This document shows positions 5,683 to 62,065 of a stretch of DNA of 64,000 nt, one piece after another; the first letter of the stretch is position 1, and every line of letters begins with the position of its first letter. Under the pieces are notes generated by a model that made no database searches, had not been told where the DNA came from, and saw nothing but the letters and a program-made list of their open reading frames with translations. The DNA is from an uncultured Candidatus Saccharibacteria bacterium (GTDB taxonomy: Bacteria; Patescibacteriota; Minisyncoccia; Phycocordibacterales; Zambryskibacteraceae): the NCBI GenBank assembly GCA_964642835.1, contig CAZXQA010000002.1, positions 11,875-75,874 of the forward strand. The letters run 5' to 3'. The position numbers were made by a program, and so were the translations under genes.

Positions 5683-5690
5683 ACAGCCAT

Positions 5691-6719: not shown

Positions 6720-6758
6720 GCTTTGCCTTTAGCTCTATTCTGTGTAGAATAGCCGCCT

Positions 6759-7319: not shown

Positions 7320-7337
7320 CGCGGGCGCAAATATTAT

Positions 7338-7646
7338 TTAACCGTTGGAGGAAGAGACTCGAGCGGAGTCTCTTTTTTTCGGCAACCACATGTCGCACGC
7401 GAGACCAATAAGAAAGCCGATCGCCGCCCAGTAGAGAAAGACAAAGAGCACTTCCTGACCATTGGGATCCGGCACGTGGCCGAAGATCCGATACATGGCG
7501 ATAAGCGGCAGGAACACAGGCGTGGCAAAGGAGTCTGCAAAACACGCCGCCCCTACCCCGACGGGACAGAAGGCCTTGAGAATGAAAATGAGGCCCACGA
7601 GCGCCGGGGCGAAAATCGTCGCTTGAACAGCATACGGAATACGCAT
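7338..7646 (-). CDS. Hypothetical small membrane protein
   Basis: ORF with 2-3 predicted TM helices. Its 3' end overlaps the efp terminator, so the exact extent is uncertain. Confidence 0.4.
   Translation of the reverse strand: MRIPYAVQATIFAPALVGLIFILKAFCPVGVGAACFADSFATPVFLPLIAMYRIFGHVPDPNGQEVLFVFLYWAAIGFLIGLACDMWLPKKRDSARVSSSNG
7353..7381 (+). terminator. Rho-independent terminator after efp
   Basis: AGAGACTC-gagcgg-AGTCTCT hairpin followed by TTTTTTT. Confidence 0.75.
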
Positions 7647-7685
7647 GCGCTTATTATATACGAGTTATCTGGATGTTACGCGATG

Positions 7686-7886
7686 TTAGCGCGAAACATA
7701 CGGGAGAAGTCCCATGAAGCGAGCGCGCTTGATGGCCATGGCAACCTGACGCTGGTTCTTGGAAGGCGCGGCAGAGCGACGGCGGGACTGAATGCGGGCG
7801 TGAGGGGTCAAGAAGAGCTTTAAGGTCTCCGTGTCCTTGTAATCCACATAGTCGACGTTATTTTCTTGGAAGTAATTCTTGGTCAT
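7686..7886 (-). CDS. rpsR: 30S ribosomal protein S18
   Basis: Sequence similarity to S18 (FLTPHARIQSRRRSAAPSKNQRQVAMAIKRARFMGLLPY). Sits in rpsF-ssb-rpsR synteny. Confidence 0.93.
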   Translation of the reverse strand: MTKNYFQENNVDYVDYKDTETLKLFLTPHARIQSRRRSAAPSKNQRQVAMAIKRARFMGLLPYVSR

Positions 7887-7910
7887 GTGAGCGGGGCTAT
7901 CTTACCTTAT

Positions 7911-8375
7911 TTAGAACGGAATGTCATCTATATTGATATTTTCTTCAGGATACTCAATCGTCTCACCCCCTGGCTCTTGAGGTTCAGGCGCTTGGGCTCC
8001 GGCCTTTGACGTCTGTGCCACCGGGCTCGCAGCGCTGGCCCCGCCAGTACTGCGAGGGCCGAACTGGATGCGGTCGGCGATGATTTCGGTGCGGTACTTC
8101 TTCTGACCAGAGGCATCATCCCAGGAGCGGGTCTGCATGCGGCCCTCAACGAGGAGGCTCGCCCCTTTGCGCAAGTACTGAGCGGTTGTTTCCGCCTGGC
8201 GGCCGAAGACAACGACGTTGTGGTAATCGGTCGATTCCTGCTTGGCTCCGTTCTTATCCTTCCAGACGCGGTTGGTAGCCAAGGAGAGAGAGGCTACCTG
8301 GATGCCGGAAGGCAACGAGCGAAGCTCCGGGTCACGGGTCAGGTTGCCAATAAGAATCGCTCGGTTGAAGTACAT
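7911..8375 (-). CDS. ssb: Single-stranded DNA-binding protein
   Basis: OB fold (NRAILIGNLTRDPELR), Gly/Ala-rich linker and a C-terminal DDIPF tail. Confidence 0.93.
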   Translation of the reverse strand: MYFNRAILIGNLTRDPELRSLPSGIQVASLSLATNRVWKDKNGAKQESTDYHNVVVFGRQAETTAQYLRKGASLLVEGRMQTRSWDDASGQKKYRTEIIADRIQFGPRSTGGASAASPVAQTSKAGAQAPEPQEPGGETIEYPEENINIDDIPF

Positions 8376-8379
8376 GCGG

Positions 8380-8811
8380 TTATTCTACCACGGCCTCTGT
8401 AGGGGTGCTCACAACCTCTTCAGCAGGAGCGGCAGCGGCCTCAAGAGCGGCCTGAGCCTTAGCGAAGGTGAAAGCGCTTTCGCGAGGAGCCTTCACGAGG
8501 AGAATGCGGACAATCTCATCCATGCGGCTGATCTCCTCCTTGAGAGCGGTCACGGCAGCAGGCTCAATCTCAAACTTCATCCAGCCCAAGTAGGCGTCAT
8601 TGACGACGTAGCGGGAAGCACCCACCACCTTGGTCATTTTGTAGGAAAGGTCGATTTTAACGGCAGATTCCCCGTCAAACTTAGTGCCTCCAGCGGCGGC
8701 CACAGCCTTTTCAAGCTTGGCTTCCACTGCTTCAACCGCGTCCTCGGCAATGCTCGGCAAAATAAGATAGCCGAGTTCGTAGACCTCTCTTTCTGATGTA
8801 TTCTCTGTCAT
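8380..8811 (-). CDS. rpsF: 30S ribosomal protein S6
   Basis: S6 similarity (YELGYLILPS...EISRMDEIVRILLVK); gene order rpsF-ssb-rpsR. Confidence 0.9.
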   Translation of the reverse strand: MTENTSEREVYELGYLILPSIAEDAVEAVEAKLEKAVAAAGGTKFDGESAVKIDLSYKMTKVVGASRYVVNDAYLGWMKFEIEPAAVTALKEEISRMDEIVRILLVKAPRESAFTFAKAQAALEAAAAPAEEVVSTPTEAVVE

Positions 8812-8820
8812 AAGTGCTCA

Positions 8821-9591
8821 CTACCCTACCATACGGAGGGCATTCTCGACAAGGGCTTTCCGAAGCGCCTCAGGGTCCTCGCCCCGCACCTCCGCCAGCC
8901 GCTTGTAGACCTCCTGCACATAGGCTGGCTCGTTCCGCTCACCACGATACGGCTTTGGCGCGACATACGGAGCATCTGTCTCCGCGTGGATCATGCCGAT
9001 GGGAGCGTTTTTGATCACCTCATCGTACTCCGAGGCGAATGTAATGACACCTGTAAATGAGGTCGAGAAACCAAGAGCCCAGAAGCGCTTCGCCTCCTCA
9101 AGCGTCCCCGCGAAGAAGTGAATATTGCCGCGGAGTTTGTCACCGTGAGTAACCTTCAACTCTTCAAGAAGCGCGATCTGCTCGGGATACGCGGCGCGGG
9201 AGTGGATCATAAGCGGCTTGCTATGACGGATGGCGAACTCAACCTGCGCGAGGAAGAGTTCTCGCTGGCGTTCGAAATCCGCCATCTTATTACCATGGAA
9301 AAAGTCGAGACCGCACTCCCCGATCGCCACCGTCTTCGGGTGACGGGCCAAGGCTTCAAAGTCCTCGGGATCAAATTTCCTCAACGGATTGTCGACCGGG
9401 TGCACGCCGACGCAGGCATAGATTTCCGGATACATCTCCGAGAGTTCGACGGCCCGTTTCGACGTCTCCAAATCAGTTCCGACCACAATCGTATGCGTTC
9501 CTGTTTCGCGCAAACGCGCGATCACGGCCTCAAAGTCCGCCTCGTACCCAGGCAGGTTAAGGTGCGAATGAATATCAAAATATTTAGGCAT
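8821..9591 (-). CDS. tatD: TatD-family metal-dependent hydrolase / DNase
   Basis: FDIHSHLN start and HxH..E..H..D TIM-barrel hydrolase motifs typical of TatD. Confidence 0.88.
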   Translation of the reverse strand: MPKYFDIHSHLNLPGYEADFEAVIARLRETGTHTIVVGTDLETSKRAVELSEMYPEIYACVGVHPVDNPLRKFDPEDFEALARHPKTVAIGECGLDFFHGNKMADFERQRELFLAQVEFAIRHSKPLMIHSRAAYPEQIALLEELKVTHGDKLRGNIHFFAGTLEEAKRFWALGFSTSFTGVITFASEYDEVIKNAPIGMIHAETDAPYVAPKPYRGERNEPAYVQEVYKRLAEVRGEDPEALRKALVENALRMVG

Positions 9592-11002
9592 TGAGACGAG
9601 GGAACAGTGGTTGCTCAGGCTTCTGGTTCGCCTTAATAAGAGCCTTAATCTTTGCGGATGTCTCGGGCATGAAGGGGTTAATAAGTCGAGCGATGGAATA
9701 AAGCTCGAGCACGAGAGCCGAGATCACTGCCTGATCCTTTGTCTCCCACGGCTTACTGTCTTGAATCTTTTTGTCCAGGGACCAGATTCTCTTCCAGACA
9801 TACTCGAGAGCGTTCTTTACTTCATAGGCATTGAGGTAGGCAAAATATTCCGACATATCTTCTCTCTCGGGAACCGGTACCGGCGCGGAGAGGTTCGCCT
9901 GAGCCAACGTCATGATGCGAGAGGTAAGATTCCCCAGACCGTTCACGAGGTTCGAGGTGTAGGCAATATTAAAGCTCTCGATACTGACGTCGGTGTCTTC
10001 GAACTGGTTCACCCCCGCCATGAGCACGCGGAACACTTCCCGACCGAAACGCGTCACCATCTCATGCGGCGTAATAAAGTTGCCGAGACTCTTCGACATC
10101 TTTTGTCCGCCAACATTGAGGAAGCCGTGAATAACAATCTGCTTCGAAGGGGTGAGGCCAGCCGAGAGAAGCATCGCCTGCCACATGGCCGCCTGTTGGC
10201 GCACCTGGTCCTTGCCGGCAAATTGCACTACCGGCCACCACTTCTGGAAGTTCGCCGTGTTGTCGGGCCAACCGATGGTCGAGATGTAGTTGGTGAGCGC
10301 GTCGAACCAGACGTACATGACGTGCTCTTCATCATCCGGCACCGCGACACCCCAGGGCATCTTGGACTTCAAACGAGAGATGGAGAAATCTTCGAGTCCC
10401 CTCTCGACGAACTTAATAATTTCGTTAAAGCGGAAATCAGGAATAACGAACTCAGGATTTTCCCGATACAACTTCAAGAGAGGGTCCTGATACTTCGAGA
10501 ACCGGAAGAAATAATTTTCTTCCTCGCGGATCTCAAGATCTTTGTTCGGGTGGAGTGGGCAAACACCATCCACAAGCTCGGAATCCGTCTTCTCGAGTTC
10601 GCAGCCGTTACAATACTTGATCGTGTAATTCTTTTTATAAATATCCCCCGCTTCTTTGCAACGCTTCCACATTTCCTGCGCCGCCATCTTGTGATGCGAA
10701 TCAGTGGTGCGGATAAAGTGAACAATCTCTTCATCAATACCGAGGAGCGCAATGAGTTCCCGGAACTTCGCCGCGTACTCATCCGTATACGCCTGCGTAT
10801 CTTGTCCGGCTTCTTCGGCCTTAGTGTAAATCTTTACTCCATGCTCATCGGTGCCTGTGTTGAAGAAAACTTCTCTCCCCTGGAGCCTCATAGCCCTTGC
10901 CACAACATCGGCGTGAATAAGCTCCATGGCAAATCCGATATGTGGCTCCGCATTCACATAGGGTAACGTCGTCGTGATGTAGAAAGGTTTCTGCTCAGAC
11001 AT
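9584..11002 (-). CDS. metG: Methionyl-tRNA synthetase, minimal form without a C-terminal tRNA-binding domain
   Basis: LPYVNAEPHIGFAME (HIGH), KMSKSLGN, and a CxxC...CPLH zinc knuckle. Confidence 0.93.
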   Translation of the reverse strand: MSEQKPFYITTTLPYVNAEPHIGFAMELIHADVVARAMRLQGREVFFNTGTDEHGVKIYTKAEEAGQDTQAYTDEYAAKFRELIALLGIDEEIVHFIRTTDSHHKMAAQEMWKRCKEAGDIYKKNYTIKYCNGCELEKTDSELVDGVCPLHPNKDLEIREEENYFFRFSKYQDPLLKLYRENPEFVIPDFRFNEIIKFVERGLEDFSISRLKSKMPWGVAVPDDEEHVMYVWFDALTNYISTIGWPDNTANFQKWWPVVQFAGKDQVRQQAAMWQAMLLSAGLTPSKQIVIHGFLNVGGQKMSKSLGNFITPHEMVTRFGREVFRVLMAGVNQFEDTDVSIESFNIAYTSNLVNGLGNLTSRIMTLAQANLSAPVPVPEREDMSEYFAYLNAYEVKNALEYVWKRIWSLDKKIQDSKPWETKDQAVISALVLELYSIARLINPFMPETSAKIKALIKANQKPEQPLFPRLNA

Positions 11003-13404: not shown

Positions 13405-14622
13405 CTATCTTATGAGAGCGGCGAGGTCTGAGATATGAACGCGCTTCTGTTCCCCACTGTCGCGGTCGCGAAGGGTGACAGTATCTTTCTGCTCGGGGAT
13501 TTCTTCACCTAAGGTACCGAAGTCGATCGTAATGCAGAATGGCGTGCCGATCTCATCCTGACGGCGATAGCGCTTGCCAATATTGCCGTTGTCATCAAAC
13601 TCAATATTTGGAATTTCTTTTTTGAGCATTGCGTAAACCTCACGAGCCTTCTCAACGAGAGCGGGCTTATTCTTCAAAAGTGGAAAGACAGCTGCACGTA
13701 CGGGAGCCACATGTTTATGCAATTTCAAATACGCACGAGTCTCTCCTCCCAACTCATCTTCGGTATACGCGTCCGAAAGTACAGCCATGACGAGACGATC
13801 GACACCCATCGTCGGCTCAATGCAGTGCGGCACAAAACGCTCTTTGGTTTCCTCATCGTAATAAGAAAGGTCCGCGCCGCTCTTTTCGGAGTGGGCGTTA
13901 AGATCGTAATCCGTACGATACGCGATACCAAGAAGTTCCTTCTGGCCAAATGGGAAATCGAACTCCGTGTCGACACTGCGTTTGGAGTAGTGAGCTCGAT
14001 CTTCGGCAGGCACGTCGATTTTGTGAATCTTTTCTTTGGAAAGACCGATCTCATCCAAGAATTCCATCTGAGCGGCATGGAGTTCGTCAAAGATCTCATG
14101 AACTTTCTGTTCGTCACGAGGATCGACGAAGTATTCGAGTTCCATCTGCTCGAACTCGCGCTGACGAAAGATGAAGTCACGCGGAGAAATTTCGTTTCTA
14201 AACGACTTCCCAATCTGCGCGATACCGAACGGCAGCGTCGGGTGGAAAGAGTCGAGAATGTTTTTGAAATTGACGAACATGCCCTGCGCGGTCTCTGGTC
14301 GCAAGTGAGAAGTAGTGGCCTCTTCCCCGGTACCCACGCTCACCGCGAAGAGTTCGTTGCCGAAATTGCCAACATGACCAGAGGCCTCAAGGACGCGCGG
14401 ATTACTAATGATCGACGTACTCACCGGGTAAACATCTTCACGACCGGAGACGAATTTGTTCCAGAAGCGCTGCTTAATGTTATGCCTCAGCTCAACGCCT
14501 AAAGGACCGTAATCCCAGAAGCCGGCAATACCTCCATAGATCTCAGAGGACGGGAAAATAAACCCCCTTCTTTTGCAGAGGGATACGATCTTTTCCATCA
14601 GATTTTCCTTATTCTCAGCCAT
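13405..14622 (-). CDS. glyQS: Glycyl-tRNA synthetase, alpha2 (archaeal/eukaryote-like) type
   Basis: Class II aaRS motifs and full-length similarity to alpha2-type GlyRS (CKRRGFIFPSSEIYGG...). Confidence 0.9.
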   Translation of the reverse strand: MAENKENLMEKIVSLCKRRGFIFPSSEIYGGIAGFWDYGPLGVELRHNIKQRFWNKFVSGREDVYPVSTSIISNPRVLEASGHVGNFGNELFAVSVGTGEEATTSHLRPETAQGMFVNFKNILDSFHPTLPFGIAQIGKSFRNEISPRDFIFRQREFEQMELEYFVDPRDEQKVHEIFDELHAAQMEFLDEIGLSKEKIHKIDVPAEDRAHYSKRSVDTEFDFPFGQKELLGIAYRTDYDLNAHSEKSGADLSYYDEETKERFVPHCIEPTMGVDRLVMAVLSDAYTEDELGGETRAYLKLHKHVAPVRAAVFPLLKNKPALVEKAREVYAMLKKEIPNIEFDDNGNIGKRYRRQDEIGTPFCITIDFGTLGEEIPEQKDTVTLRDRDSGEQKRVHISDLAALIR

Positions 14623-16553: not shown

Positions 16554-17060
16554 TCATTCTCCGGCCAGCTGGCTCTGATGCAATCCCTCATTAATCGCTT
16601 TGACGAGATCTGTTTTCTCGAGAGTAAGATCCTTTTCCTTCAAATATCCCAAGTGGTAGAGCATCGTCGCGACAAAACGCGGCTCAAAAAGCTCATCCTC
16701 AATCTCTGCACTTGTGAGAAACACTTCCACCGCGTCAAAAAGTTCGGCGTGGACCGCCTCACCTTGCACGAGCCTCTCGAGCAAGACGAGTGGTCGCAGC
16801 AAAGCCGGTCTCGCCTTAACGCGAACGTGGGCCTGCGCTGAAGTGATGCGCCAATACTCTTTACCACGTACCAAGGACACGTTTGCAAAGGCCACCGGTT
16901 CCAAGGAGCCGCGTAATTTGGAAGTGCTCTTACGTACGCCTGTCGCGGTCGCTCGCACGAGTCCTAGATCACGAGTAAGGATGGAGTACACTCGGTCTGC
17001 CTCCCGTAGCGGACGCTCCGAGAGCACGAGACCCTTGGTGGTGTAGATGTGGTACGACAC
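16554..17060 (-). CDS. recO: DNA repair protein RecO, short form lacking a zinc-finger tail
   Basis: N-terminal OB-fold similarity to RecO (YTTKGLVLSERPLREADRVYSILTRDLGLVRATATGVRKSTSKLRGSLEP) and a C-terminal LYHLGYL helical region. Confidence 0.72.
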   Translation of the reverse strand: MSYHIYTTKGLVLSERPLREADRVYSILTRDLGLVRATATGVRKSTSKLRGSLEPVAFANVSLVRGKEYWRITSAQAHVRVKARPALLRPLVLLERLVQGEAVHAELFDAVEVFLTSAEIEDELFEPRFVATMLYHLGYLKEKDLTLEKTDLVKAINEGLHQSQLAGE

Positions 17061-20000
17061 TAGAAGTCGATATTGCCCGCTTTCTTGATTTCAAGAGCGT
17101 GAGCGGCAAAGAAGGCTTCTTCACCTGCCGGCACCGTGTACGCCGCCCTCTCTCCCGGTTTCAAGTTATTTGTTTTCCTCCATTCCTGAACCGAGCGGAT
17201 CACGTCACGCACCTTCCCCTCTTCGATGAGCGCAGGGGTGAGCGTCGTATCCAAGAACACCTCTTCCACAAGAGACGGATCGCTCACCACTTCCTTCACA
17301 TTGATCTCATCTTTAATGATGTCTTGGTATTCTGCGGCGAGCTGCAAACTCTTCACTGCCAGCTTTGCTAAAGGTTGGCGCACTTTGATATTGGCCTTAG
17401 AGCGTAGTTCCAAGGCGAGTGAGACGAGGCGGCGAGTTTCGGCCATGTGTTCGAGCACAACGGGTTTCTTTTCTGATGTGAAGCGAGCAAGGAGAGATTT
17501 CTTCTTTTCTGTCCACGTGGTGAGGTGCACACTCACAGGCTCATTGTCTTCTCTGACCTTTTGATATATTTCCTCGGCCATAAACGGCATAATCGGCGCC
17601 ATGATCTTCGAGAGCTCCTTGAAGACATATCGCGACGTCGCGAGAGCGTGCTGCTTGTCTTCTTTATCCTCTCCCTTAAACCTGTCACGAGAACGCCTGA
17701 CGTACCACGTCGATAGATCGGCCACGAAGTCCTTGATCGGCCGACTCGCACGCACGAGATCATACGCCTCGAGCGCCTCCGTCACTTCCTTCAATAATTC
17801 TTCCAAGCGAGCCAAGATCCAACGATCAAGCACACGCGGGCTCTTCTCGCCATTCGCAGGCGTGCCATCAGCGTAAAGCTCGTAGAAGGTGAAGGTGTTG
17901 GCGAGGATATTGAGCAGACGGTTATGAACGTCTTTCACCTCTTCGTCCTTAAACGACGCGTCCTCGGCCTGCATGACGACGGAAGACATGAGGTAGTAAC
18001 GGAAGGCGTCGGCCCCGATGGTGTCGAGAAGAATAAGTGGGTCGGTGTAGTTCCCTTTCGACTTACTCATCTTCGAACCATCCTTCGCCAAGATGTTACC
18101 GGTCGTGATGACGTTCGTGAATGCCGGTTTGTTGAAGAGCATAACCGCGACGACATGCATGTAGTAGAACCACGTGCGCGTCTGAGCGATATACTCCGCC
18201 ACAAAGTGGCCAGGGAAATGATGCTTGAACGCTTCCTCGTTCTCGAAGGGATAGTGGTATTCGGCAAAGGGCATGGACGCTGACTCCACCCAGCCGTCGA
18301 TCACTTCTGGAATACGCTTCAAGGGCTTACCCTCTTCTGTCACAAGCTCTACTTCGTCGATGTAAGGGCGATGAAGATCGAGTTCGAAGTGCTTGTTATG
18401 AGGCAAGGGCACGAACGATAATTCGCGAACCTCCGCATTCGTAAATTTCTTAAAGTCACCCACCTTAGGACTCTGATTTTCAGGACGATACCACTCTGAG
18501 TGCTCCGCGCCCATAGACTGCCCTAACCCGATCATGGTGAGCATCCATGCGGGAGTGCTATGAGTGCTGATAAGGATATTTTTGCCTTGGTATTTCTTTT
18601 CAAGATCGTAAAGGAATTCTCCTACGCGGCCACGAATGTCGGTCAATGATTCACCCTCCGGCACAGATGCCGTGAGAGGGTTTTCCTTCGTGTGTTCTGC
18701 TAAGCCGAGGTGATATTCCTTATAAGATTTGCCGTTGTAGATACCTGCGTTGATTTCTCCGATCCGAGAATCATATACAACAGCATCCTTTGGAAGTCCG
18801 AACACATCGGCCGCGATCTCTGCCGTTTCTTTAGCACGTACAAAATCTGAAGTAATAATTACGTCGATGTTATTCCCCGCAAGTTGAGCCGCCGCTTTTC
18901 TCACCTGCTCTTTCCCCACATCAGATAGGCGGTCATATTCATGACCTACGGTATTGGCAACAATCTCTTTTGCATTACTGAGACTTTCTCCATGTCTTAT
19001 AGCAAAATAGCGGTTCCCTGATTTCTTGGCATATTTCTTAAAGTCGTCGAGAGAGCCAACGACTGTCACCTTGCCGTTTTCGTCCTTCCAGATTGGCAGA
19101 GGCGCCGCCCAGTAGCGGTTACGGGAGATCGTCCAGTCCGGCGCGTTCTCGACAATGTTCAAGAAGCGGCCGTGCTTTAAGTGAGCCGGGAACCAGTTCA
19201 CCTCTTCATTGAGAGCAATCATGCGATCTTTCACCTTCTGAATATTGAGGAACCACGAAGAGATCGCGTTATAGAGAAGTGCCGTACCGCAGCGGTGACA
19301 ATGCGGATACGAGTGGGTATGCATCTCACGCTTATAGAGCAAGTGTCTTGTTTCCAGATCTTCCTTCACGAGCTTCTCCGCTTTTTTGAAGTATTGCGTG
19401 CGGATAAATTCCGGCGCAAGCGCGTTAAAGTGCCCCGCTCCGTCGAGCAGCTGAATCATCGGTAAATCGTTCTTCAATCCCAGAGCATAGTCGTCTTCAC
19501 CATAAATCACGGCGGTGTGCACGAGTCCCGTGCCGTCGGTAGTCGTCACGAAATCGGCTTCCGTTACGTACCAGCCCTTCTTCCCCGTTTCGCGAGCAGC
19601 CGGAATTTCATAGAGCGGCTCATATTCCATGCCGATCATCTCGCTTCCTTTGTGCTCGGCCACTACTTCATACGGCTCAGTAAGCACGGAGAGGCGCTCT
19701 TTAGCGAGAACGAGAATTTCCTTCCCTACTTTGGCCTCCACATAATCAATATCTCTCCCCACCGCGAGCGCCACGTTCCCCGGCAAGGTCCACGGCGTCG
19801 TTGTCCACGCGAGGAAGTAGGCATCCGGGAACGCTTTGATTTTAAATTTCACGTAGACCGACTCTTCGGTGACGTCGCGGTAACTGTTGTCCATCGCCAC
19901 TTCTGCCTTGGCGATTGGCGTCTGGCAGTGCGGACAATAGAGCAAAACTTTTTTACCCTCATAGAGAAGACCCTTCTCGTCCATCTTCTTCAAGGCATGC

Positions 20001-20485
20001 CAAACGCTCTCGATGTACGTGTTGTCCATCGTCTTGTAGGCGTTGTCGTACTCGACCCAGCGACCGACGCGGTCAACATATTTCTTCCACTCATGCGCGT
20101 ATCGCATGACAGAAGCGCGGCACGTTTCGTTAAAGGCTTCGATACCGATCTTGCCTTCGATCTCTGTCTTATCTTTAAGACCGAGCTCTTTCTCGATCAT
20201 GTTCTCGATTGGCAAGCCGTGGCAGTCCCAACCCCAGCGACGACGCACATGGTAGCCTTGCATCGTCTTGTAGCGAGGGATGACGTCTTTAATCACGGAG
20301 GAAAGGAGACTCCCGGCGTGAGGCAACCCCGTCGCGAATGGCGGCCCGTCATAGAAAGTGAATTCCCCTTTCGGCGCCTCTTTCTCGAGACTCTTTTCGA
20401 AAATGTGATTCTCCTGCCAGAACTTCAAAACCGCCTCTTCCTTAAGAGCGCGCTCGGACTTGGGATTGGTGTGGGTGGTATCCAT
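17060..20485 (-). CDS. ileS: Isoleucyl-tRNA synthetase, eukaryote-like type 2, with an in-frame histidine phosphatase (PGM-like) domain insertion
   Basis: FYDGPPFATGLPH...WGWDCHGLPIE, KMSKSKGN, and an editing domain. ATG at 20485 chosen; the ORF track's 20533 is a TTG in the leader. Residues about 507-715 contain an RHGES histidine-phosphatase fold. Confidence 0.9.
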   Translation of the reverse strand: MDTTHTNPKSERALKEEAVLKFWQENHIFEKSLEKEAPKGEFTFYDGPPFATGLPHAGSLLSSVIKDVIPRYKTMQGYHVRRRWGWDCHGLPIENMIEKELGLKDKTEIEGKIGIEAFNETCRASVMRYAHEWKKYVDRVGRWVEYDNAYKTMDNTYIESVWHALKKMDEKGLLYEGKKVLLYCPHCQTPIAKAEVAMDNSYRDVTEESVYVKFKIKAFPDAYFLAWTTTPWTLPGNVALAVGRDIDYVEAKVGKEILVLAKERLSVLTEPYEVVAEHKGSEMIGMEYEPLYEIPAARETGKKGWYVTEADFVTTTDGTGLVHTAVIYGEDDYALGLKNDLPMIQLLDGAGHFNALAPEFIRTQYFKKAEKLVKEDLETRHLLYKREMHTHSYPHCHRCGTALLYNAISSWFLNIQKVKDRMIALNEEVNWFPAHLKHGRFLNIVENAPDWTISRNRYWAAPLPIWKDENGKVTVVGSLDDFKKYAKKSGNRYFAIRHGESLSNAKEIVANTVGHEYDRLSDVGKEQVRKAAAQLAGNNIDVIITSDFVRAKETAEIAADVFGLPKDAVVYDSRIGEINAGIYNGKSYKEYHLGLAEHTKENPLTASVPEGESLTDIRGRVGEFLYDLEKKYQGKNILISTHSTPAWMLTMIGLGQSMGAEHSEWYRPENQSPKVGDFKKFTNAEVRELSFVPLPHNKHFELDLHRPYIDEVELVTEEGKPLKRIPEVIDGWVESASMPFAEYHYPFENEEAFKHHFPGHFVAEYIAQTRTWFYYMHVVAVMLFNKPAFTNVITTGNILAKDGSKMSKSKGNYTDPLILLDTIGADAFRYYLMSSVVMQAEDASFKDEEVKDVHNRLLNILANTFTFYELYADGTPANGEKSPRVLDRWILARLEELLKEVTEALEAYDLVRASRPIKDFVADLSTWYVRRSRDRFKGEDKEDKQHALATSRYVFKELSKIMAPIMPFMAEEIYQKVREDNEPVSVHLTTWTEKKKSLLARFTSEKKPVVLEHMAETRRLVSLALELRSKANIKVRQPLAKLAVKSLQLAAEYQDIIKDEINVKEVVSDPSLVEEVFLDTTLTPALIEEGKVRDVIRSVQEWRKTNNLKPGERAAYTVPAGEEAFFAAHALEIKKAGNIDF

Positions 20486-20722
20486 AGTGTGAAAAATAAA
20501 AACTCGTCGCTGAGCAGAAATAATTCTGCGCAAGGACGAGTTTTCACCCGTGGTACCACCTTGATTTTTACCCGCCTTTGGCGGGGCTTCTCATTCACAG
20601 CTATACCGGGCTTACCCGTCGGGTTCTACACAGCTTTCGCCTTTCTTCCCGAAGCTTGCCCGCCGCTCTTTCTGGCGGGCTTGGGAGTGATTAGTTCCCT
20701 TAACGCGTATGCACCCACTATA
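20486..20722 (-). promoter_or_regulatory. T-box riboswitch leader with intrinsic terminator upstream of ileS
   Basis: Minus-strand RNA contains AUCAAGGUGGUACCACGGG, matching the T-box consensus GGUGGNACCGCG. This is followed by a terminator hairpin (ACUCGUC...GACGAGU, forward 20501..20544) and a U-run. A hairpin resembling stem III (CCCGCC-aaa-GGCGGG) lies just 5' of the T-box. A candidate AUC(A) specifier is at 20689..20691. Confidence 0.75.
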
Positions 20723-35255: not shown

Positions 35256-35510
35256 ATTAAAACTATACCAGAATAAGAATCGTTGGGGCGACTATCGGGA
35301 TTCGGTCACGGATAATTTCTTGCTAGAAATTTCCGCTACCCCCCGCTCGGCCCGTCGGCCTCCGCACTTCGAATCCCGTAGACGTGAATAGAAAAAGCCG
35401 CCACACGGGCGGGCCTTTTCTATTCATGGGCCAGAGTAGGAAAACTATTCTGGATGTCTTCTCAGATAGAGTATACCTTGAGGGTGTCAAAGAGAAGCTG
35501 GATTTTATTG
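35256..35510 (-). repeat. Cassette repeat R3 with a 142-nt insert (35289..35430)
   Basis: The insert begins with a tRNA-His 3'-end-like cgactatcggg. It shares a 55-nt GC-rich segment with the tRNA-Val scar. It carries a bidirectional terminator hairpin at 35386..35425. Confidence 0.85.
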
Positions 35511-36389: not shown

Positions 36390-36700
36390 ATTAAAACTAT
36401 ACCAGAATAAGCATCCTTCCCTACCCCTTCGAAAACCTTATTCTGAATTGGGGCGACTAGAGAGACGCTACGCTATCGAACTCCTCGGAAACCCACGGTT
36501 TTCCGAATCCTTCCTCCACGGGGAACTCCCGTTCCCCGACCCCCTCCCCGTTCGATTCTCTCCAGGGCCGGAGTGAAAATAAAAAGACCCACGCGAGGCG
36601 GATCTTTTTATTTTCATGGGCCAGAGTAGGAAAATTATTCTGGAGGTGTTTTCGGATAGAGTGTACCTAGAAGGGGTTAAAGAAAAGCTGGATTTTATCT
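36390..36700 (-). repeat. Cassette repeat R4 with a 167-nt insert (36454..36620)
   Basis: The insert begins cgactagagag... This is a degenerate copy of the tRNA-His variable loop, T-arm and acceptor on the same strand as tRNA-His. It also has an AAAATAAAAAGA...TCTTTTTATTTT terminator hairpin at 36575..36615. Confidence 0.85.
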
Positions 36701-38750: not shown

Positions 38751-38823
38751 GGGCGACTAGAGAGAATCGAACTCTCGAGACCAGCTCCACAAGCTGGAGT
38801 TTTACCACTAAACTATAGTCGCC
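38751..38823 (-). tRNA. tRNA-His (GTG) with an encoded G-1
   Basis: GGCGACUA...UAGUCGCCC gives an 8-bp acceptor stem including G-1:C73. Anticodon loop UUGUGGA. T-loop GUUCGAUUC. Confidence 0.88.
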
Positions 38824-39418: not shown

Positions 39419-40165
39419 CTAATCTAACACACCTCCACCCACCATGTCTACAGCGGCTTGGAAGTCGGCCGGATACGGGGCCACGAGCTCGACACGCTCC
39501 CCCGCGAGGTTCGTGAAGGCGATTTTCCGCGCATGGAGAGCCGTGCGCTCGAAGCCTAAGAGCTTTGGCTTCCCCGCGGCGTAGAGCGGATCGGAGACGA
39601 CGGGTCGCTGGAGCGCCTGGAAGTGGACGCGGATCTGGTGTGTGCGCCCCGTCTTCGGCTGAGCCTCGATAAAACTCACGTTGTGAGTTTTATCGCGCCG
39701 CAAAACGCGGAAATACGTCACAGCCTCGCGATTTTCGCCGCGCGTACTGCCCGGACGAGCCGACCATTTACGGAAGTCACCAGAGCTTCGACCAATCGGG
39801 AAGGTGATCGTCCCATGGTCATCCTTGAGATCACCATATACAAAGAGATGATAGGTCTTCTCCACTTCCCTGTTTTGAAACTGAGCCTTCAAATGCTCGT
39901 GCCCTTGAGCGGTCTTCGCCAGGAGAAGAACGCCCGAGGTGTCGCGGTCAATCCGGTGAACGATACCGGGGCGCGCGATCTCCTTGCCCTCGCGCGTTTG
40001 AATCGGCTCTCCTAGTCCCACGGCCTCTGGATACGCCGCGACAAACCAGTCCGCGAGGCTCGGCTCTTCCGTTCGTCCATCTGAATGCACGACAAGCCCG
40101 GCGGGTTTGTTGACCGCCACAATATCTGCGTCTTCGTAGAGAATCGCGTCTTTTAAATCGACCAT
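39419..40165 (-). CDS. RluA-family pseudouridine synthase (RluD-like)
   Basis: Catalytic HRIDRDTSGVLLLAK motif. Confidence 0.88.
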   Translation of the reverse strand: MVDLKDAILYEDADIVAVNKPAGLVVHSDGRTEEPSLADWFVAAYPEAVGLGEPIQTREGKEIARPGIVHRIDRDTSGVLLLAKTAQGHEHLKAQFQNREVEKTYHLFVYGDLKDDHGTITFPIGRSSGDFRKWSARPGSTRGENREAVTYFRVLRRDKTHNVSFIEAQPKTGRTHQIRVHFQALQRPVVSDPLYAAGKPKLLGFERTALHARKIAFTNLAGERVELVAPYPADFQAAVDMVGGGVLD

Positions 40166-40238
40166 GTGTCCCTGGTAGGAATCGAACCTACATCAGCGCC
40201 TTAGAAGAGCGCTGCTCTATCCATTGAGCTACAAGGAC
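40166..40238 (-). tRNA. tRNA-Arg (TCT)
   Basis: Cloverleaf with anticodon loop CUUCUAA. Confidence 0.85.
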
Positions 40239-40242
40239 AGGG

Positions 40243-40327
40243 TGGGCACGAGAGGACTTGAACCTCCAATCCCTTGCGGGAACAGCGACCTGAACGCTGC
40301 GCGTCTGCCAATTTCGCCACGTGCCCG
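40243..40327 (-). tRNA. tRNA-Leu (CAG)
   Basis: Long variable arm; anticodon loop UUCAGGU. Confidence 0.85.
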
Positions 40328-40392
40328 ACAGTGCCCATTGGGGCCCGAAGCCCGTGCAAAAACAATACAACATATGCTAGTATCTCGCTATT

Positions 40393-40468
40393 GCGGGATT
40401 AGCTCAGTTGGTAGAGCAACTCTTTTACACAGAGAAGGTCACAGGTTCGAGTCCTGTATCCCGCACCC
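40393..40468 (+). tRNA. tRNA-Val (TAC)
   Basis: GCGGGAU acceptor stem, anticodon loop UUUACAC, T-loop GGUUCGAGUCC. Confidence 0.85.
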
Positions 40469-40561
40469 GATGGACGAGAAGCGCGCAGGCCGACGGGCCG
40501 AGCGGGGGTCGCGAAAATTTCAGTAAGAAATTATTCGTGACCGAGTCCTGTATCCCGCACC
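40469..40561 (+). repeat. att-like scar downstream of tRNA-Val. A 55-nt segment related to the R3 insert is followed by a 22-nt direct duplicate of the tRNA-Val 3' end
   Basis: ...aggccgacgggccgagcgggggtcgcgaaaatttcagtaagaaattattcgtgaccGAGTCCTGTATCCCGCACC. The capitals repeat 40447..40468. Confidence 0.7.
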
Positions 40562-40954
40562 TTAGTTCGAATCGATATAGTTCTTAAGGATGATAGCCGC
40601 GGCCGAAGCATCGGTCATGCTCGTGTTGCCCTGGATCTGGCGAGCCTCCATGGTGGTAAAGATTTCCGGATGGAGAATGACTTCCACGCCATTCTTCTCG
40701 AGAGCGGCCTTGAACTCCTGAATCCGGCCGAGGATCGCGTTCGCCGAACCATCCAAGTTCCTGGATTCTCCCATAATCACCTTCTCGATCCCCTCTTTCA
40801 TCTTGAACTCAAGCACCGTCTCTAAGAGATGCTCATCGTTCGGTAAGACTAGGCGAGGCAAGGCGAAGGTGCCTCCTTCGTCTGTGGAAGCGATGCCTAC
40901 CCGCTTTTCGCCATAATCGATCGCCATTAACTTCATGAGTTCAGTATAGTACAC
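40562..40954 (-). CDS. ruvX: Holliday junction resolvase-like RuvX/YqgF (pre-16S rRNA nuclease)
   Basis: AIDYGEKRVGIA...LVLP N-terminus typical of YqgF. Confidence 0.85.
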   Translation of the reverse strand: MYYTELMKLMAIDYGEKRVGIASTDEGGTFALPRLVLPNDEHLLETVLEFKMKEGIEKVIMGESRNLDGSANAILGRIQEFKAALEKNGVEVILHPEIFTTMEARQIQGNTSMTDASAAAIILKNYIDSN

Positions 40955-40962
40955 TAAGGGCC

Positions 40963-41196
40963 ATGGAATCCCTCACCACTCTCTCGAACCTCGTTGGCCT
41001 TGACCCTATCGTTATCATCCTTATTGTCGCGTGGACCTTAGCCTGGAAGGGCTTCGCGCTCTGGCGCGCTGCCGAACTTCGCGAGAAGAACTGGTTCATC
41101 GCCCTCTTTCTCTTGAACACGCTCGGCATTCTCGACATCATTTACCTCTTTGTCCTCACGCGCGGATATAAGGTGGAAGTGGTCGAAGAAAAGTAA
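40963..41196 (+). CDS. Small hypothetical membrane protein
   Basis: 77 aa with two TM helices. Confidence 0.5.
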   Translation: MESLTTLSNLVGLDPIVIILIVAWTLAWKGFALWRAAELREKNWFIALFLLNTLGILDIIYLFVLTRGYKVEVVEEK

Positions 41197-41218: not shown

Positions 41219-41306
41219 GGGAGGAGTGGCGGAGTGGTCTAACGCACCTGTCTTGAAAACAGGAGGGCTCGCAAGGGTCCCGTGAGTTCGAATCTCACCT
41301 CCTCCG
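41219..41306 (+). tRNA. tRNA-Ser (TGA)
   Basis: GGAGGAG acceptor stem, anticodon loop CUUGAAA, and a long variable arm. Confidence 0.85.
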
Positions 41307-41341
41307 CAACTTATTTAATTAAATTAAGGTAAGCTAGGTTC

Positions 41342-42133
41342 ATGAACCCTGACCATATCTCTCATCGCAAATTTATCCTCGGAGCGAGTGTTGTTGCCGC
41401 TATTTTAATCTTTTCTGCGCATACCGTTTCTCGTCACACTCCCTCCAATTCTCTCCCTGAAGTCCCCGAGGAAGTTTCTGACACCACCTCTTCCCCACCC
41501 GCTTCTCTGACTGAAAGTGCTCCAGCAGAAACCTTGATCCCCACTCTCTCACTTGCGGAAGCTCTGAGTGCGATACCATCAGACGAATCGGCCGAGCCCC
41601 TTTCATCAAGTTCAAATCAAATCATCCTTGAGAAACTTGGTCTTATGTTCGATCTCCCTAAGGGGTACACGGCGTACCAGAAGGAAGGTTTTGAAGGAGG
41701 ATACGGCTTGAACGTCGTCATAACCAAGGACGTTACTCCTGGTCACGTAACGTATGCCGCTATTACTATGAGAACCTTTTACGGTGAGCAGGTCAGTCAT
41801 GAGACTCCTCACGAACCATTCTTCTCTGCGAAGAACTATCTTTCCGCTCTCGTTAAACAAATTAACCTGAAAGAAGCCGAGGCTACTCACTTTTCTTTCC
41901 ATAGTCTGTACCGCACCCCCGCGAAGACCACTCTTGCAGGAAGAGAAGCTCTGTTCTATGAATATGATGAAGTGGACTTGAGTTATCACGTGGTGACGGT
42001 TCTCTCAGGTTCCTGGTATGATTCCGAATATCTCGGATTAGAGATCAGCAGTTCCACCTACGGCACCGGCGCCCAGTTCAACCCCGCCCTCTTTAAACAG
42101 ATTGTGCTCAGCCTCCGACCTATTAACAAATAA
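41342..42133 (+). CDS. Hypothetical secreted/membrane-anchored protein
   Basis: N-terminal TM helix and a Ser/Pro-rich linker; no recognised domain. Confidence 0.55.
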   Translation: MNPDHISHRKFILGASVVAAILIFSAHTVSRHTPSNSLPEVPEEVSDTTSSPPASLTESAPAETLIPTLSLAEALSAIPSDESAEPLSSSSNQIILEKLGLMFDLPKGYTAYQKEGFEGGYGLNVVITKDVTPGHVTYAAITMRTFYGEQVSHETPHEPFFSAKNYLSALVKQINLKEAEATHFSFHSLYRTPAKTTLAGREALFYEYDEVDLSYHVVTVLSGSWYDSEYLGLEISSSTYGTGAQFNPALFKQIVLSLRPINK

Positions 42134-59122: not shown

Positions 59123-59386
59123 CTAGGCGTATAAAATCTTCCTGACGGGCAATTTATAGAGTCCTCGTAACTCGTCCATAATCCCTTCTTCTTTGAGACG
59201 GATCTCATTTTTCGCTACGGCGCTTGAGATCTCAATTTTCAATACTCCGTCCTTAAAGGAAACTTGATCTTGCGTGAGAGTAACGCGGGCTCTTGTGCGA
59301 ATCACATCAACGACAGCGCTCTTGGCGATGCCGTCACGATTAAGCGCTTTAGCAAACCGTTCGAGGAGGCTTTGAATATTGCGCAT
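59123..59386 (-). CDS. DUF721/DciA-like protein
   Basis: 87 aa immediately downstream of dnaN, with a DUF721-like pattern. Confidence 0.6.
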   Translation of the reverse strand: MRNIQSLLERFAKALNRDGIAKSAVVDVIRTRARVTLTQDQVSFKDGVLKIEISSAVAKNEIRLKEEGIMDELRGLYKLPVRKILYA

Positions 59387-60489
59387 TAGGCCTGATTCAT
59401 CGGCATAACGAGATAGAGGAAGCTCGTATCCCCTACTCCTTGGATAATAATCGGCTTGGCTTGTCCGCTGAAGGAGAGCATCAAGCTATCAGTCGTGACC
59501 GACTGGAAACAATCCGTGAAGTAGCGATGATTCACATTAATCACAATCTCTTCTCCTTCAAGAGCGGCATCAACTTTATGAACGCTTTCACCCACCGTGG
59601 AATTCTTCGATTCGATTTCAAACGTTTTCTCCGTTGGCGAGAGTTTGAGCGTAAGTTGGTTAAAGGAGTCCGAGAAAATAAGCGAAGTCTTCAAGGAGTT
59701 GATGAGGTCCTGCTTGAGGAGGGTGGCGGAGGAAGTCTTCTCCTTAGGAATAATCTGGCGATAATCTGGGAACACACCCTCGATAATACGCGAGGTGAGA
59801 TAAATACCGTGCGAGCGTAGAGCAATCTGATGCTCGGTAATAGAGATCGAGACCTCTTCCTCGCCTCGATCGAAGATCTTCACCATCTCCAAGGCATTCT
59901 TCTGAGGAATGAGGATTTGCTTAAAGTGAGGCATCTTCTTAATGCGGATCTTCTTCTCCGCCAAACGGAAAGAGTCTGTCGCCGCAAAGACAAGTGAGTC
60001 CCCTTCGTGAGTGACGCTCACCGAAGAGAGCTCAGGCTTAATGCTTCCTACGGCTGCCGCATAGATGACCGAGCGGATTCCGAAGACGAAATCGCGCACT
60101 GGCATGGTAAAGGCGTTATCCTCGCTCACTTCCGGAATAATCGGGAAATCCTCAAGTGAGAGGGTTTTGATATTGGTCTTTGTCGAAGCAGTCTTCACCT
60201 CGACAACCTGTCCTTTTACAGTGAAGGTGATATTCCTATCCTTGGTGAGCGAGGAGACGAAGGATGACGTAATATGGGCCGGGATAACGAGTTCGCCTGG
60301 TTCAACGACTTTGACCGGGATCGTGATGGAAAGCCCGATGTCGAGGTTTGTAGCCTTAATGGTGAGGCTTGAGCCGGCTGCTTCGAGTTTGAATCCCGAG
60401 AGAACGGGTAGGCTCGTATTCTTCCCCGCGATCTTGTCGGCTTTGTTCAATGCCTCCTCGAGTTGTTCCTTAACGCATTCTATCTTCAT
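59386..60489 (-). CDS. dnaN: DNA polymerase III beta sliding clamp
   Basis: Three-domain clamp similarity; the dnaA-dnaN synteny supports it. Confidence 0.92.
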   Translation of the reverse strand: MKIECVKEQLEEALNKADKIAGKNTSLPVLSGFKLEAAGSSLTIKATNLDIGLSITIPVKVVEPGELVIPAHITSSFVSSLTKDRNITFTVKGQVVEVKTASTKTNIKTLSLEDFPIIPEVSEDNAFTMPVRDFVFGIRSVIYAAAVGSIKPELSSVSVTHEGDSLVFAATDSFRLAEKKIRIKKMPHFKQILIPQKNALEMVKIFDRGEEEVSISITEHQIALRSHGIYLTSRIIEGVFPDYRQIIPKEKTSSATLLKQDLINSLKTSLIFSDSFNQLTLKLSPTEKTFEIESKNSTVGESVHKVDAALEGEEIVINVNHRYFTDCFQSVTTDSLMLSFSGQAKPIIIQGVGDTSFLYLVMPMNQA

Positions 60490-60712
60490 GGTGTGTATAT
60501 TATTTATATATAAATACTTAGTAGTAGCAGTAGAGGGTGTGGATATGTGGGTAAGTCGGCAAGTGGCTTGGTTGAGCGGAATCTAGGAAATTGTCTCCTG
60601 GGAAGCTGGGGAGAGCGAAGGATGAAATGTGTACGCTACTCCCCCTTGCCGACCCCTCTCCTGTTTCTGCCCTTCTTATTAACATTCTTTCCCGAATTTT
60701 TCCACACGTTGT
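60490..60712. promoter_or_regulatory. Candidate chromosomal replication origin (oriC) between dnaA and dnaN
   Basis: AT-rich DUE-like tract at 60491..60520. Near-consensus DnaA boxes TGTGGATAT (60538..60546) and TTTTCCACA (about 60697..60706). Confidence 0.6.
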
Positions 60713-62065
60713 TCATACATTTAATAAACCCCTGATCTGCTCAACTTCCTCAGCGAGAGACTGGTCCTCTCGAAGGTCGTTCTTCATCTTCTCGCAGGAG
60801 TGGATAACTGTTGTGTGGTCACGGCCACCCAACTTCTGTCCGATAGAGGGATACGAGATCCCGAAGTCCTCACGGAGGAGATACATAATGATCTGTCTCG
60901 GCTTAATGACTTCCTTATGGCGAGTCTTCTCGTAGATGCTCTCCTCCTTCACGTTGTAGAAGTCGGCGATAATCTTGACCACATCCTTCACCGCGATCGA
61001 CTTCTTCGGCTTCACGTTGTTCTTGATGTAGTTACGAGTATCAAGCAGAGTCGGATCCTTGCCTTTGAGCTGGATTTGCATGAGGAGCGTGTTGATAACG
61101 CCTTCCAGCTCACGAATATTGCCGTTAATTGTTTGAGCAAGGTAATCGATGATTTCGGGGGTAAGGCCGATACCCAACTGCTTGGCTTTGGCGGAAATGA
61201 TGGCAATCCGACTCTCTTTGTCCGGGGCGGGAATGTCGACGGTCATACCCGCCGCCATGCGACTCTTCAAGCGATCTTCGAGGCCGGTAATGAAGTGAGG
61301 ATGTTTGTCGGACGAGAAGATGATCTGGCGGTTGTTGTCGTAGAGAGAGTTAAAGGTGTGGAACAACTCTTCTTGGACGCGCTGCTTCTCGGAGAAGAAT
61401 TGGATGTCGTCGACAATGAGGACGTCGTATTTGCGGTACTTCTCCTTAAAGACATGCATCTTCTGGTGTTGGAGAGCGTTCATGAACTCAACTGAGAACT
61501 GTTCGGAAGTGAGATAGTAGACCTTTTTCCCTGGTGACATGGTCTTAATATGGTTCCCCACCGCCTGGATGAGGTGAGTTTTACCATGGCCGGTCGAGCC
61601 ATAGATAAAGAGTGGGTTGTACATAATCCCTGGCTTCTTGATGACAGCTTGAGCGGCGGCATGGGCTAATTCGTTGAAGGGGCCAATCACAAAGTTCTCA
61701 AAGGTGTAGCGCGGGTTGAGGTTATCCTCCTTGTTAACGCTTACTTCCGTGAGCGGAAGTTCGCGCGACATCCCTATCTCCCTTGGCTTACTATCATCTC
61801 GACGGCGAGCTTCTTCCTTATTCACCACATATTCGACACTGTGGATGGAATGTTCGATATTGCGCAGGCTGCGAAGGATAGCGCTGTGGTATTTGGTGAG
61901 GAGCCACTCTTTTACGAAGGCATTCGGTACGGAAAGAACCACTACCCCACCATCTTCCTTAACAATGCGAGTGTCTTTAAACCAGGTGGTGAAGTTTGCC
62001 TTAGAAACTCCGAGTTCCATCTCTACTAATACATGTTGCCAAAGCTGTTTGTAATCCATAGTCAA
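60713..62065 (-). CDS. dnaA: Chromosomal replication initiator DnaA
   Basis: AAA+ GSTGHGKTHL Walker A and a C-terminal DnaA-box-binding domain. Confidence 0.95.
   Translation of the reverse strand: MTMDYKQLWQHVLVEMELGVSKANFTTWFKDTRIVKEDGGVVVLSVPNAFVKEWLLTKYHSAILRSLRNIEHSIHSVEYVVNKEEARRRDDSKPREIGMSRELPLTEVSVNKEDNLNPRYTFENFVIGPFNELAHAAAQAVIKKPGIMYNPLFIYGSTGHGKTHLIQAVGNHIKTMSPGKKVYYLTSEQFSVEFMNALQHQKMHVFKEKYRKYDVLIVDDIQFFSEKQRVQEELFHTFNSLYDNNRQIIFSSDKHPHFITGLEDRLKSRMAAGMTVDIPAPDKESRIAIISAKAKQLGIGLTPEIIDYLAQTINGNIRELEGVINTLLMQIQLKGKDPTLLDTRNYIKNNVKPKKSIAVKDVVKIIADFYNVKEESIYEKTRHKEVIKPRQIIMYLLREDFGISYPSIGQKLGGRDHTTVIHSCEKMKNDLREDQSLAEEVEQIRGLLNV

Follow-up and report, generated by a model that had tools for sequence, protein, structure and literature searches.

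Downstream of the tRNA-Val(TAC) gene of this CPR bacterium, a segment of only about 75 nt lies between two copies of the tRNA 3′ end, which raises the question of whether it is what an almost complete deletion left of a larger integrated island or a miniature element in its own right. An earlier note on this DNA had offered both options. We analyzed the locus in the window (the whole stretch of 64,000 nt) and compared it with related assemblies, cited below by their L numbers. The unique part of the insert measures 74 nt, and of the two options the miniature non-autonomous element is best supported: the insert appears to be a conserved, structured mini-cassette rather than a scar.

An insertion at the 3′ end of tRNA-Val

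The tRNA-Val(TAC) gene is intact, with the T-loop UUCGAGU and the acceptor stem GCGGGAU/AUCCCGC (Table 1). Its portion from C56 to C75, comprising T-loop, 3′ T-stem strand, 3′ acceptor strand, A73 and CC, recurs downstream on the same strand as an exact direct repeat, CGAGTCCTGTATCCCGCACC. The duplication had been given as 22 nt in the earlier note; since it is preceded by GGTT in the proximal and by TGAC in the distal copy, its actual length is 20 nt. The window contains no third match with three or fewer mismatches, and 100 shuffles yielded none. As already described, the distal copy ends right at the stop codon of ruvX, which reads TTA on the + strand (40562-40564). A terminator scan of 40100-41000 returned no terminator-like site. 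We also considered a split or permuted tRNA, a tmRNA or an alternative tRNA fold using the distal repeat, and ARAGORN and Rfam found none of these.

Table 1 Coordinates of the tRNA-Val locus and of the second element copy (J3) in the window
Feature	Position	Strand	Basis
J3, second window copy of the element, in the tRNA-His array (R3 insert of the earlier note)	35284..35425	-	
J3 bidirectional terminator	35425-35386	-	terminator scan
J3 inverted T-arm copy GTCTACGGGATTCG	35383-35370	-	alignment
J3 Y-core	35374-35303	-	covariance model 88-93 bits; folding z-score -3.1
J3 His-like tRNA 3′ fragment from C56, CGAATCCCGATAGTCGCCCCA	35304-35284	-	sequence, alignment
tRNA-Val(TAC), intact, no encoded CCA	40393..40468	+	ARAGORN; Rfam tRNA model 71.4 bits
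Proximal 20-nt repeat, C56 (T-loop) through A73 plus CC	40448..40467	+	exact repeat; numbering from Rfam alignment
Linker CGATGGACGAGAAG	40468..40481	+	folding; alignment to other element copies
Conserved Y-core	40474..40543	+	covariance model 83-90 bits; covariation, 6 distinct copies; folding z-score -2.8
Hairpin 1, GGCC-GACG-GGCC stem-loop, conserved G-N-A/G-A internal loop	40482-40506	+	
Hairpin 2, about 15-16 pairs, conserved G.U pair, bulged A	40507-40542	+	
Distal 20-nt repeat, read as displaced tRNA-Val 3′ end	40542..40561	+	exact repeat; L042 empty site
ruvX (YqgF), convergent with tRNA-Val	40562..40954	-	ORF list; PF03652 in homologues

RuvX homologues place the bacterium among the Parcubacteria/Patescibacteria. 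The occupied tRNA-Val site was found with the same structure in three other independent assemblies from different projects, namely L009 (ENA; RuvX 99% identical), L010 (NCBI GCA_020049755.1; RuvX 89%) and L011 (Logan). In L042 (RuvX 79% identical), which has the window's gene order (ruvX, tRNA-Val on the opposite strand, tRNA-Leu(CAG), tRNA-Arg(TCT), RluD), the tRNA-Val 3′ end adjoins the stop codon of ruvX directly, and both arm and repeat are lacking. Relative to this empty site the window carries 94 extra nt, i.e., 74 unique nt plus one repeat copy, and the distal copy occupies the exact place of the tRNA-Val 3′ end in L042. The 94 nt are a genuine insertion into the tRNA-Val 3′ end with target duplication.

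A second site was found in L025, L031 and L034, where the core of the element, lacking the repeat, separates tRNA-Arg(TCT) from the stop codon of ruvX. Its empty state is seen in L041, where tRNA-Arg(TCT) lies directly against ruvX without a core, and in contig P0004, where the same arrangement was judged by a C-terminal read-through peptide. At least two sites are thus known in both an occupied and an empty state, and L042, L043/L045, L041 and L013, close relatives that share the gene order, lack the element. Of the features by which Islander recognizes islands, the locus shows an intact tDNA with a displaced 3′ fragment in direct orientation (20/20 nt, same strand) and an unoccupied site in a related genome (L042); an integrase gene inside the island was not found, the 74 nt between the repeats containing no ORF.

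Several local differences among relatives were recorded alongside. The tRNA-Val acceptor stem (40393-40399/40457-40463) differs from that of L042, L012 and L013 by two base-pair flips (2:71 and 4:69), reading GCGGGAU/AUCCCGC in the window versus GGGCGAU/AUCGCCC in those three; the window-lineage allele ATCCCGC stands in both repeat copies, and ATCGCCC in L042, L012 and L013. Behind ruvX, most relatives (L012, L013, L035) carry the pilM-pilN block, tRNA-Arg(TCT) and a gene for malic enzyme. The window lineage has the pilM-pilN block nowhere in the 64 kb, and its tRNA-Arg(TCT) lies on the other side of tRNA-Leu(CAG). The window RuvX ends a few residues earlier (…NYIDSN) than in most relatives. 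A single ancestral insertion of the arm, deduced from the shortened RuvX C-terminus (…YIDS+1) common to the window, L010 and L025, was ruled out by L041, L042, L043 and P0004, in which RuvX ends similarly short or reads through and no arm is present.

A conserved two-hairpin core

The earlier note had reported a 55-nt arm, about 85% identical and in reverse orientation, shared with the insert in the tRNA-His array that we call J3. The shared arm is real, and it proved longer (64-67 nt) and more similar: 40478-40541 (+) and 35305-35370 (-) are 88% identical over 66 nt. An exact 22-mer within it, AGGCCGACGGGCCGAGCGGGGG, occurs at only these two places in the window (0 expected by chance).

The arm holds a conserved core of two hairpins, here the Y-core, joined by a GGGG junction in the Val copy and by a G-rich one across copies. 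The first base of the distal repeat doubles as the last base of hairpin 2. The linker 5′ of the hairpins is in register with the inverted T-arm copies of other elements; its agreement with the complement of the tRNA-Val T-arm is limited to about 7/12 positions, GGAC with GUCC being the only pairing. Each copy was predicted to adopt the same fold, which is 5-13 kcal/mol more stable on the tRNA-sense than on the antisense strand.

Across six distinct copies, 97% of the cells pair and 10 of the 23 pairs have changed on both sides. The covariation score was 0.426 versus 0.154 for shuffles, none of 500 shuffles reaching the observed value, in an alignment fitted to the covariance model, which favors structure. 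Sliding the partner columns by 1-3 lowered pairing to 35-51%. Four near-identical copies alone gave no significant covariation (141/500 shuffles reached the score); significance came only after two diverged copies found by the model had joined the alignment. A G.U pair is kept in 6/6 copies and further U.G pairs occur. Since the opposite strand would have A-C mismatches in their place, the folding strand is probably the tRNA-sense strand.

With Rfam 15, only tRNAs reached the gathering score and no family overlapped the core even at E ≤ 5; at this threshold, J3 and the related insert J4 gave only chance-level matches, to the J4 terminator hairpin. The alternative named in the earlier note, a common terminator or REP element scattered genome-wide, did not hold: 40100-41000 has no terminator-like site, the 64 kb contain two copies, and an exact 20-mer recurs in only two other metagenome contexts.

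Between the window and L010, both the unique insert (0/74) and tRNA-Val (0/75) are free of differences, compared with 7/67 in the Val-Leu spacer and 9/86 in tRNA-Leu(CAG), and the two sequences diverge immediately past the distal repeat. At a background divergence of 10%, a stretch of 74 nt would stay unchanged with a probability of ~4e-4, so the insert is either under constraint or has spread recently. A scar in the sense of a neutral remnant is not supported, fitting neither the absence of differences nor the strongly covarying core.

A family of tRNA-linked copies with a common junction

A scan of 241 million metagenome records for the exact 20-mer returned 20 stretches: 16 were chance matches in GC-rich sequence, and the remaining four, all of Hainich groundwater origin, were real. 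The covariance model derived from these copies picked up two diverged members, one behind tRNA-Leu(GAG) in L012 (5938-6008) and one upstream of the tRNA-His promoter in L019 (133-205). The search for the arm beside other tRNA genes, proposed in the earlier note, was therefore productive: the six distinct copies lie behind tRNA-Val, tRNA-His, tRNA-Leu(GAG) and tRNA-Arg(TCT), always in the orientation of the tRNA and with at most two per genome. The same element family is present in the window's tRNA-His array (J3) and behind tRNA-His, tRNA-Leu(GAG) and tRNA-Arg(TCT) in related groundwater Parcubacteria.

A tRNA 3′ fragment starting at C56 follows the core in four of the six copies, three of which are preceded by a clear inverted T-loop/T-stem copy and a terminator; in the fourth, at tRNA-Val, the inverted copy is degenerate and the terminator is missing. 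This C56 junction occurs in three tRNA species, namely Val, His (L019, and the His-like fragment of J3) and Leu(GAG) of L012, and in all four copies the core ends ...GTGAC just 5′ of the fragment. The duplication, 18-21 nt long, invariably extends from C56 to the end of the tRNA. In L019, tRNA-His is followed by a bidirectional terminator, an inverted T-loop/T-stem copy (ACAGGGATTCGAAT), the core and an exact 19-nt repeat of the tRNA-His 3′ end from C56 (293-311 and 445-463). In L012 the core is flanked by two terminators; between the first of these and the core stands a perfect 13-nt inverted copy of T54-C66, and between the core and the second a fragment from C56 that has decayed slightly. 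The L025 and L019b copies consist of the core without recognizable flanking tRNA fragments.

Together with two loci of a second core type, eight loci share this architecture. They measure 74-175 nt, lie in five tRNA contexts in several genomes and have an identical part order, and none contains an ORF. Since random deletions of a larger island would not give one common layout, a miniature element is favored over a scar.

Searches in other sequence collections returned no further members. An exact 18-mer of the arm had eight matches in IMG/VR viral contigs, all due to chance and without flank similarity, and a relaxed two-anchor pattern had no match there. In one genome per GTDB species this pattern matched once, by chance, inside a coding region of a Truepera MAG; at that stringency the Y-core family is thus not in the GTDB species representatives. 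Neither GenBank phages nor PLSDB plasmids gave a blastn match to the Val locus. When six-frame core peptides were used as a chimeric query for ORFs miscalled across further copies in a set of 5.8 billion proteins, 8000 word-sharing candidates were obtained, none at E ≤ 10.

The tRNA-His cassette array

Between tRNA-His (38751-38822) and a DM13 gene, the window holds seven one-ORF cassettes (33.1-38.75 kb, genes on the - strand) that encode an AAA_18 kinase, a Ser hydrolase, a HAD protein, EamA, a GNAT protein, a dCTP deaminase-like protein and UbiA. The array has a GC content of ~41% versus 53% for the surrounding genome, and its empty state is seen in L013, where the DM13 gene directly follows tRNA-His. 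At each junction, a repeat of ~110 nt starts from the stop codon, contains a CCAGAATA...TACTCTGG hairpin and ends in a degenerate tRNA-His 3′ fragment, followed by a promoter-like box, TGGTATAGT.

J3 sits in this array as a cassette does, between two tRNA-His-like 3′ fragments. The link that the earlier note had drawn between the tRNA-Val locus and the array is confirmed, J3 carrying both the core and a C56-starting tRNA 3′ fragment that follows the arm on its own strand, a point the note had missed. A second core type, unrelated in sequence, was found in J4 (36449-36616, - strand) and directly behind tRNA-His in L010 (12190-12365). Its order of terminator, inverted T-arm copy, GC-rich two-hairpin body and tRNA-His 3′ fragment is the Val-type architecture, and its flanking copies follow the T-stem of the local tRNA-His (GAGAG/CTCTC in the window versus GAGGG/CCCTC in L010). 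J3 and J4 are gene-less cassettes within the array. Patterns of the J4 core and of the array junction repeat had no match in viral contigs. As a separate observation, the J4-type 3′ fragment has a 9-nt T-loop insertion (AGCGWAGCG) that recurs at the next L010 cassette junction (13411-13438).

Outside the array, three further features of the window were noted. A 1157-aa class I aminoacyl-tRNA synthetase (tRNA-synt_1 plus Anticodon_1; 17060-20533, - strand) has a His_Phos_1 histidine-phosphatase domain (residues 511-673) inserted in its catalytic domain. Downstream of tRNA-Ser(TGA), 41220-42133 contains a 263-aa ORF that Pfam does not match, in place of the FtsJ and methyltransferase genes of L013; the region is another tRNA-linked variable spot. 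Finally, dnaN and dnaA are located at 59386-62065, close to the right-hand edge of the window; together with a cumulative GC skew that declines steadily over its whole length, this puts the replication origin probably just past ~62 kb.

Candidate recombinases

The earlier note had read the duplicated tRNA 3′ end as the sign of an integrase-mediated insertion. The insertion with its duplicated 3′ end stands; the integrase is a matter of deduction, as a Pfam scan of the 40 window ORFs found neither a tyrosine nor a serine recombinase. Nor was the arm seen beside integrase genes, no recombinase being linked to any copy. The arrangement is that of cis-mobilizable, non-autonomous elements, in that att-type repeats bound an insert lacking recombination genes of its own.

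Relatives do have large serine recombinase genes near their tRNA genes. In L035, the called ORF (3646-5499) reads through the antisense tRNA-Arg(TCT) (3844-3916), which means that the recombinase gene directly abuts the tRNA 3′ end. In L010, a large serine recombinase lies in an inserted block of at least 9 kb (615-9439) beside tRNA-Ser(TGA) (9592-9681), together with methylases, an S24 peptidase and DnaA_C/sigma-like genes. These genes near tRNAs, along with the two occupied sites and their empty counterparts, point only indirectly to mobilization in trans by a recombinase encoded elsewhere. A large serine recombinase would be the best candidate, as such genes adjoin tRNAs in these relatives and also serve the Dehalococcoides ssrA islands.

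Comparison with known systems

The ssrA islands are the closest documented system. They have a 20-bp repeat starting in mid-T-loop with a conserved motif next to it on the upstream side, form tandem arrays and use a serine recombinase (PMC3146451). Both they and the Y-core elements have a conserved motif immediately upstream of the repeats, tandem arrays and members without integration genes, and the Y-core clade likewise has serine recombinase genes near tRNA genes (L035, L010). The ssrA islands, however, span kilobases with cargo and usually a six-gene integration module, whereas the Y-core unit has 74-175 nt and no ORF, targets ordinary tRNAs (Val, His, Leu, Arg) and includes a covarying two-hairpin core and an inverted target copy, neither of which is described for ssrA islands.

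In islands detected by Islander, a regenerated tDNA and a displaced fragment mark the ends, and sites in the T-stem region are the commonest class (PMC4383910); in mycobacteriophage Ms6, a change in the core sequence retargets integration to other tRNAs (PMC1762012). The Y-core elements resemble both in the identity block from T-loop to tRNA 3′ end, the regenerated tRNA and the displaced far-end fragment, but they have no integrase gene in or beside them and are two orders of magnitude smaller. Their identity starts at C56, whereas the 26-bp Ms6 core also includes the 5′ T-stem (PMC1762012). For arrays separated by partial tRNAs, tycheposon islands are the closest analogue: like the Y-core elements, CIMEs and the cargo-only members of tRNA-linked arrays such as tycheposons have att repeats, no recombinase of their own and a place in such tandem arrays beside a tRNA gene (bioRxiv 10.1101/2020.12.28.424599). 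Those units are gene-carrying and kilobase-sized or are degraded remnants, whereas the Y-core elements are conserved, structured and gene-less.

With integron attC sites, the Y-core shares structure that is kept more than sequence, imperfect hairpins and a conserved bulged base; like ORF-less integron cassettes, it lies in a one-gene-cassette array. As in attC and the folded attP of CTX phage, a folded inverted repeat could rebuild a duplex resembling the double-stranded target. Unlike attC, the predicted folding strand is the ORF/tRNA-sense rather than the bottom strand, and the Val and L025 copies have no closing stem. By inspection, the sequences contain no R″ (RYYYAAC)/R′ (GTTRRRY) closing hairpin: the closing stems are tRNA T-arm sequences, and the two GTT-type motifs of the array junctions are direct, not inverted. 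Neither intI nor attI was found; the 40 ORFs include no tyrosine recombinase, and the array starts at tRNA-His. Nor does the element combine terminal inverted repeats with a fixed short duplication, as a MITE would.

Interpretation of the element

We lean, with little more than even confidence, towards the 94 nt being a gene-less, non-autonomous miniature integrative element that is site-specific for the tRNA-Val T-loop and moved in trans. The comparisons themselves show the insertion at T55/C56 with its exact boundaries, the regenerated tRNA-Val with its old 3′ end displaced, the family with its common C56 junction and the folded core, and no recombinase gene among the window ORFs scanned. 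The mini-cassette would bring its own copy of C56-C75, and the distal repeat on its far side would be the original 3′ end. The element body would be the folded two-hairpin core of ~70 nt, preceded in fuller versions by the bidirectional terminator and the inverted T-loop/T-stem copy of the target. A site-specific recombinase encoded elsewhere would catalyze the insertion, and the core would be the part that this system needs. Some observations count against this reading. A double-stranded att arm would need no 23 compensatorily maintained pairs; the insert is as conserved as tRNA-Val, which fits a host function and a recent spread equally; the L025 and L019b copies lack flanking tRNA fragments; and no recombinase is linked to the element.

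A double-stranded DNA circle of 94 bp, or even of 125-175 bp, is also an implausibly small substrate for classical integration, given the stiffness of DNA. A double-stranded model also fails to explain the minute size, the inverted target copy and the covarying hairpins. It is conceivable, though on balance rather doubtful, that the Y-core elements represent a so far undescribed class of mobile unit in CPR bacteria, without genes and integrating in folded, single-stranded form. The inverted and direct T-loop/T-stem copies would then pair and rebuild a duplex mimicking the tRNA target, the closing-stem sequence would set the target choice, and the covarying core would act as a recognition or terminal structure; a tRNA-targeting attC-like or CTX-like system of this kind might also build the one-gene cassette array at tRNA-His. 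The order after insertion (target copy in the tRNA, body, inverted copy, core or loop, direct target copy) is the one that such integration may be expected to leave. The lack of attC core motifs and the missing closing stems of the Val and L025 copies weaken the proposal.

Among the rival explanations, the one that survives best, although we consider it unlikely, takes the core as a structured RNA kept by the host, either a tRNA trailer or a stand-alone small RNA in tRNA sense, for instance as a decoy or to serve tRNA processing; in that case, its occurrence at tRNA 3′ ends would be due to its site of expression and not to its way of moving. This is consistent with the strong covariation (97% of cells pairing, 10/23 double-sided changes, 0/500 shuffles), the retained G.U and U.G pairs, the 5-13 kcal/mol advantage of the sense fold, the folding z-scores of both window copies, the 0/74 differences from L010 against ~10% in flanking non-coding DNA and the direct passage from tRNA-Val to the core without a terminator. 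It would, however, leave the target duplication unexplained. In four of the six copies the core lies immediately downstream of an intrinsic terminator of the same orientation, and a promoter-like site was not detected. Rfam gives no match up to E ≤ 5, and the absence of the core from L042, L043/L045, L041 and L013 shows that it is not a core host function. The roles as RNA and as mobile element are mutually compatible.

Less probable still is a true scar, in which an integrase-bearing island at tRNA-Val underwent an internal deletion that left its two att-proximal ends. No recombinase gene is left at the site and a 94-bp double-stranded circle cannot integrate as such, both as a scar would have it, and the classical attL/attR arrangement consists of just such a regenerated tRNA and displaced 3′ fragment (PMC4383910). 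Independent deletions, however, leave variable remnants, whereas the eight loci in five tRNA contexts are all small and ORF-less with the same part order; moreover, compensatory changes preserve the structure in diverged copies, and the 74 nt carry no substitutions where neighboring non-coding DNA differs by ~10%.

A transposon-type miniature, MITE-like or similar to a non-autonomous casposon, would have arisen through staggered cuts by a transposase or casposase, with the repeat as target-site duplication. Casposons target tRNA 3′ ends with duplications of 14-15 bp, and small size, lack of genes and internal hairpins suit a MITE. Another small insertion of this clade does have flanks like those of a classical MITE: in L043, 75 nt of GC-rich, hairpin-forming sequence (1050-1125) beside the tRNA-Leu(CAG) 5′ end are bounded by a 9-10-nt direct repeat, ACATGCCCG, and L045, which comes from a second sample and has the same RuvX protein, lacks them. 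Their sequence shows no relation to the Y-core, and the difference is a strain-level polymorphism of another miniature element. For the tRNA-Val insert this origin is very improbable: by inspection its ends (CGATGG... / ...CGTGAC) are not terminal inverted repeats, the length of the duplication follows the tRNA instead of a fixed stagger, and copies are rare, in the genomes and in the metagenome records alike. An assembly artefact or chance repeat, for which only the general risk of metagenome assembly speaks, is refuted for practical purposes by the identical structure in four independent assemblies and by the zero occurrences expected by chance.

Implications

Measured against known tRNA-targeting integrative elements, the mini-cassette is noteworthy for its size, its fold and its CPR host. 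CPR bacteria (Patescibacteria) have tiny genomes, and how they gain and lose genes is little understood. The locus shows CPR tRNA genes as active insertion points, at which the inserted units can be reduced to ~75-175 nt without any gene and nevertheless retain a strongly conserved fold and an exact junction at T-loop position 56. Should the core be a recombination recognition module, the covariance model (R2) would provide a means of finding cassettes, targets and the recombinase across CPR, and would help to account for the integron-like one-gene cassette array at tRNA-His. If it is an RNA, it would be a new structured RNA family tied to tRNA 3′ ends. Under either reading, the element is small enough for direct synthesis and testing.
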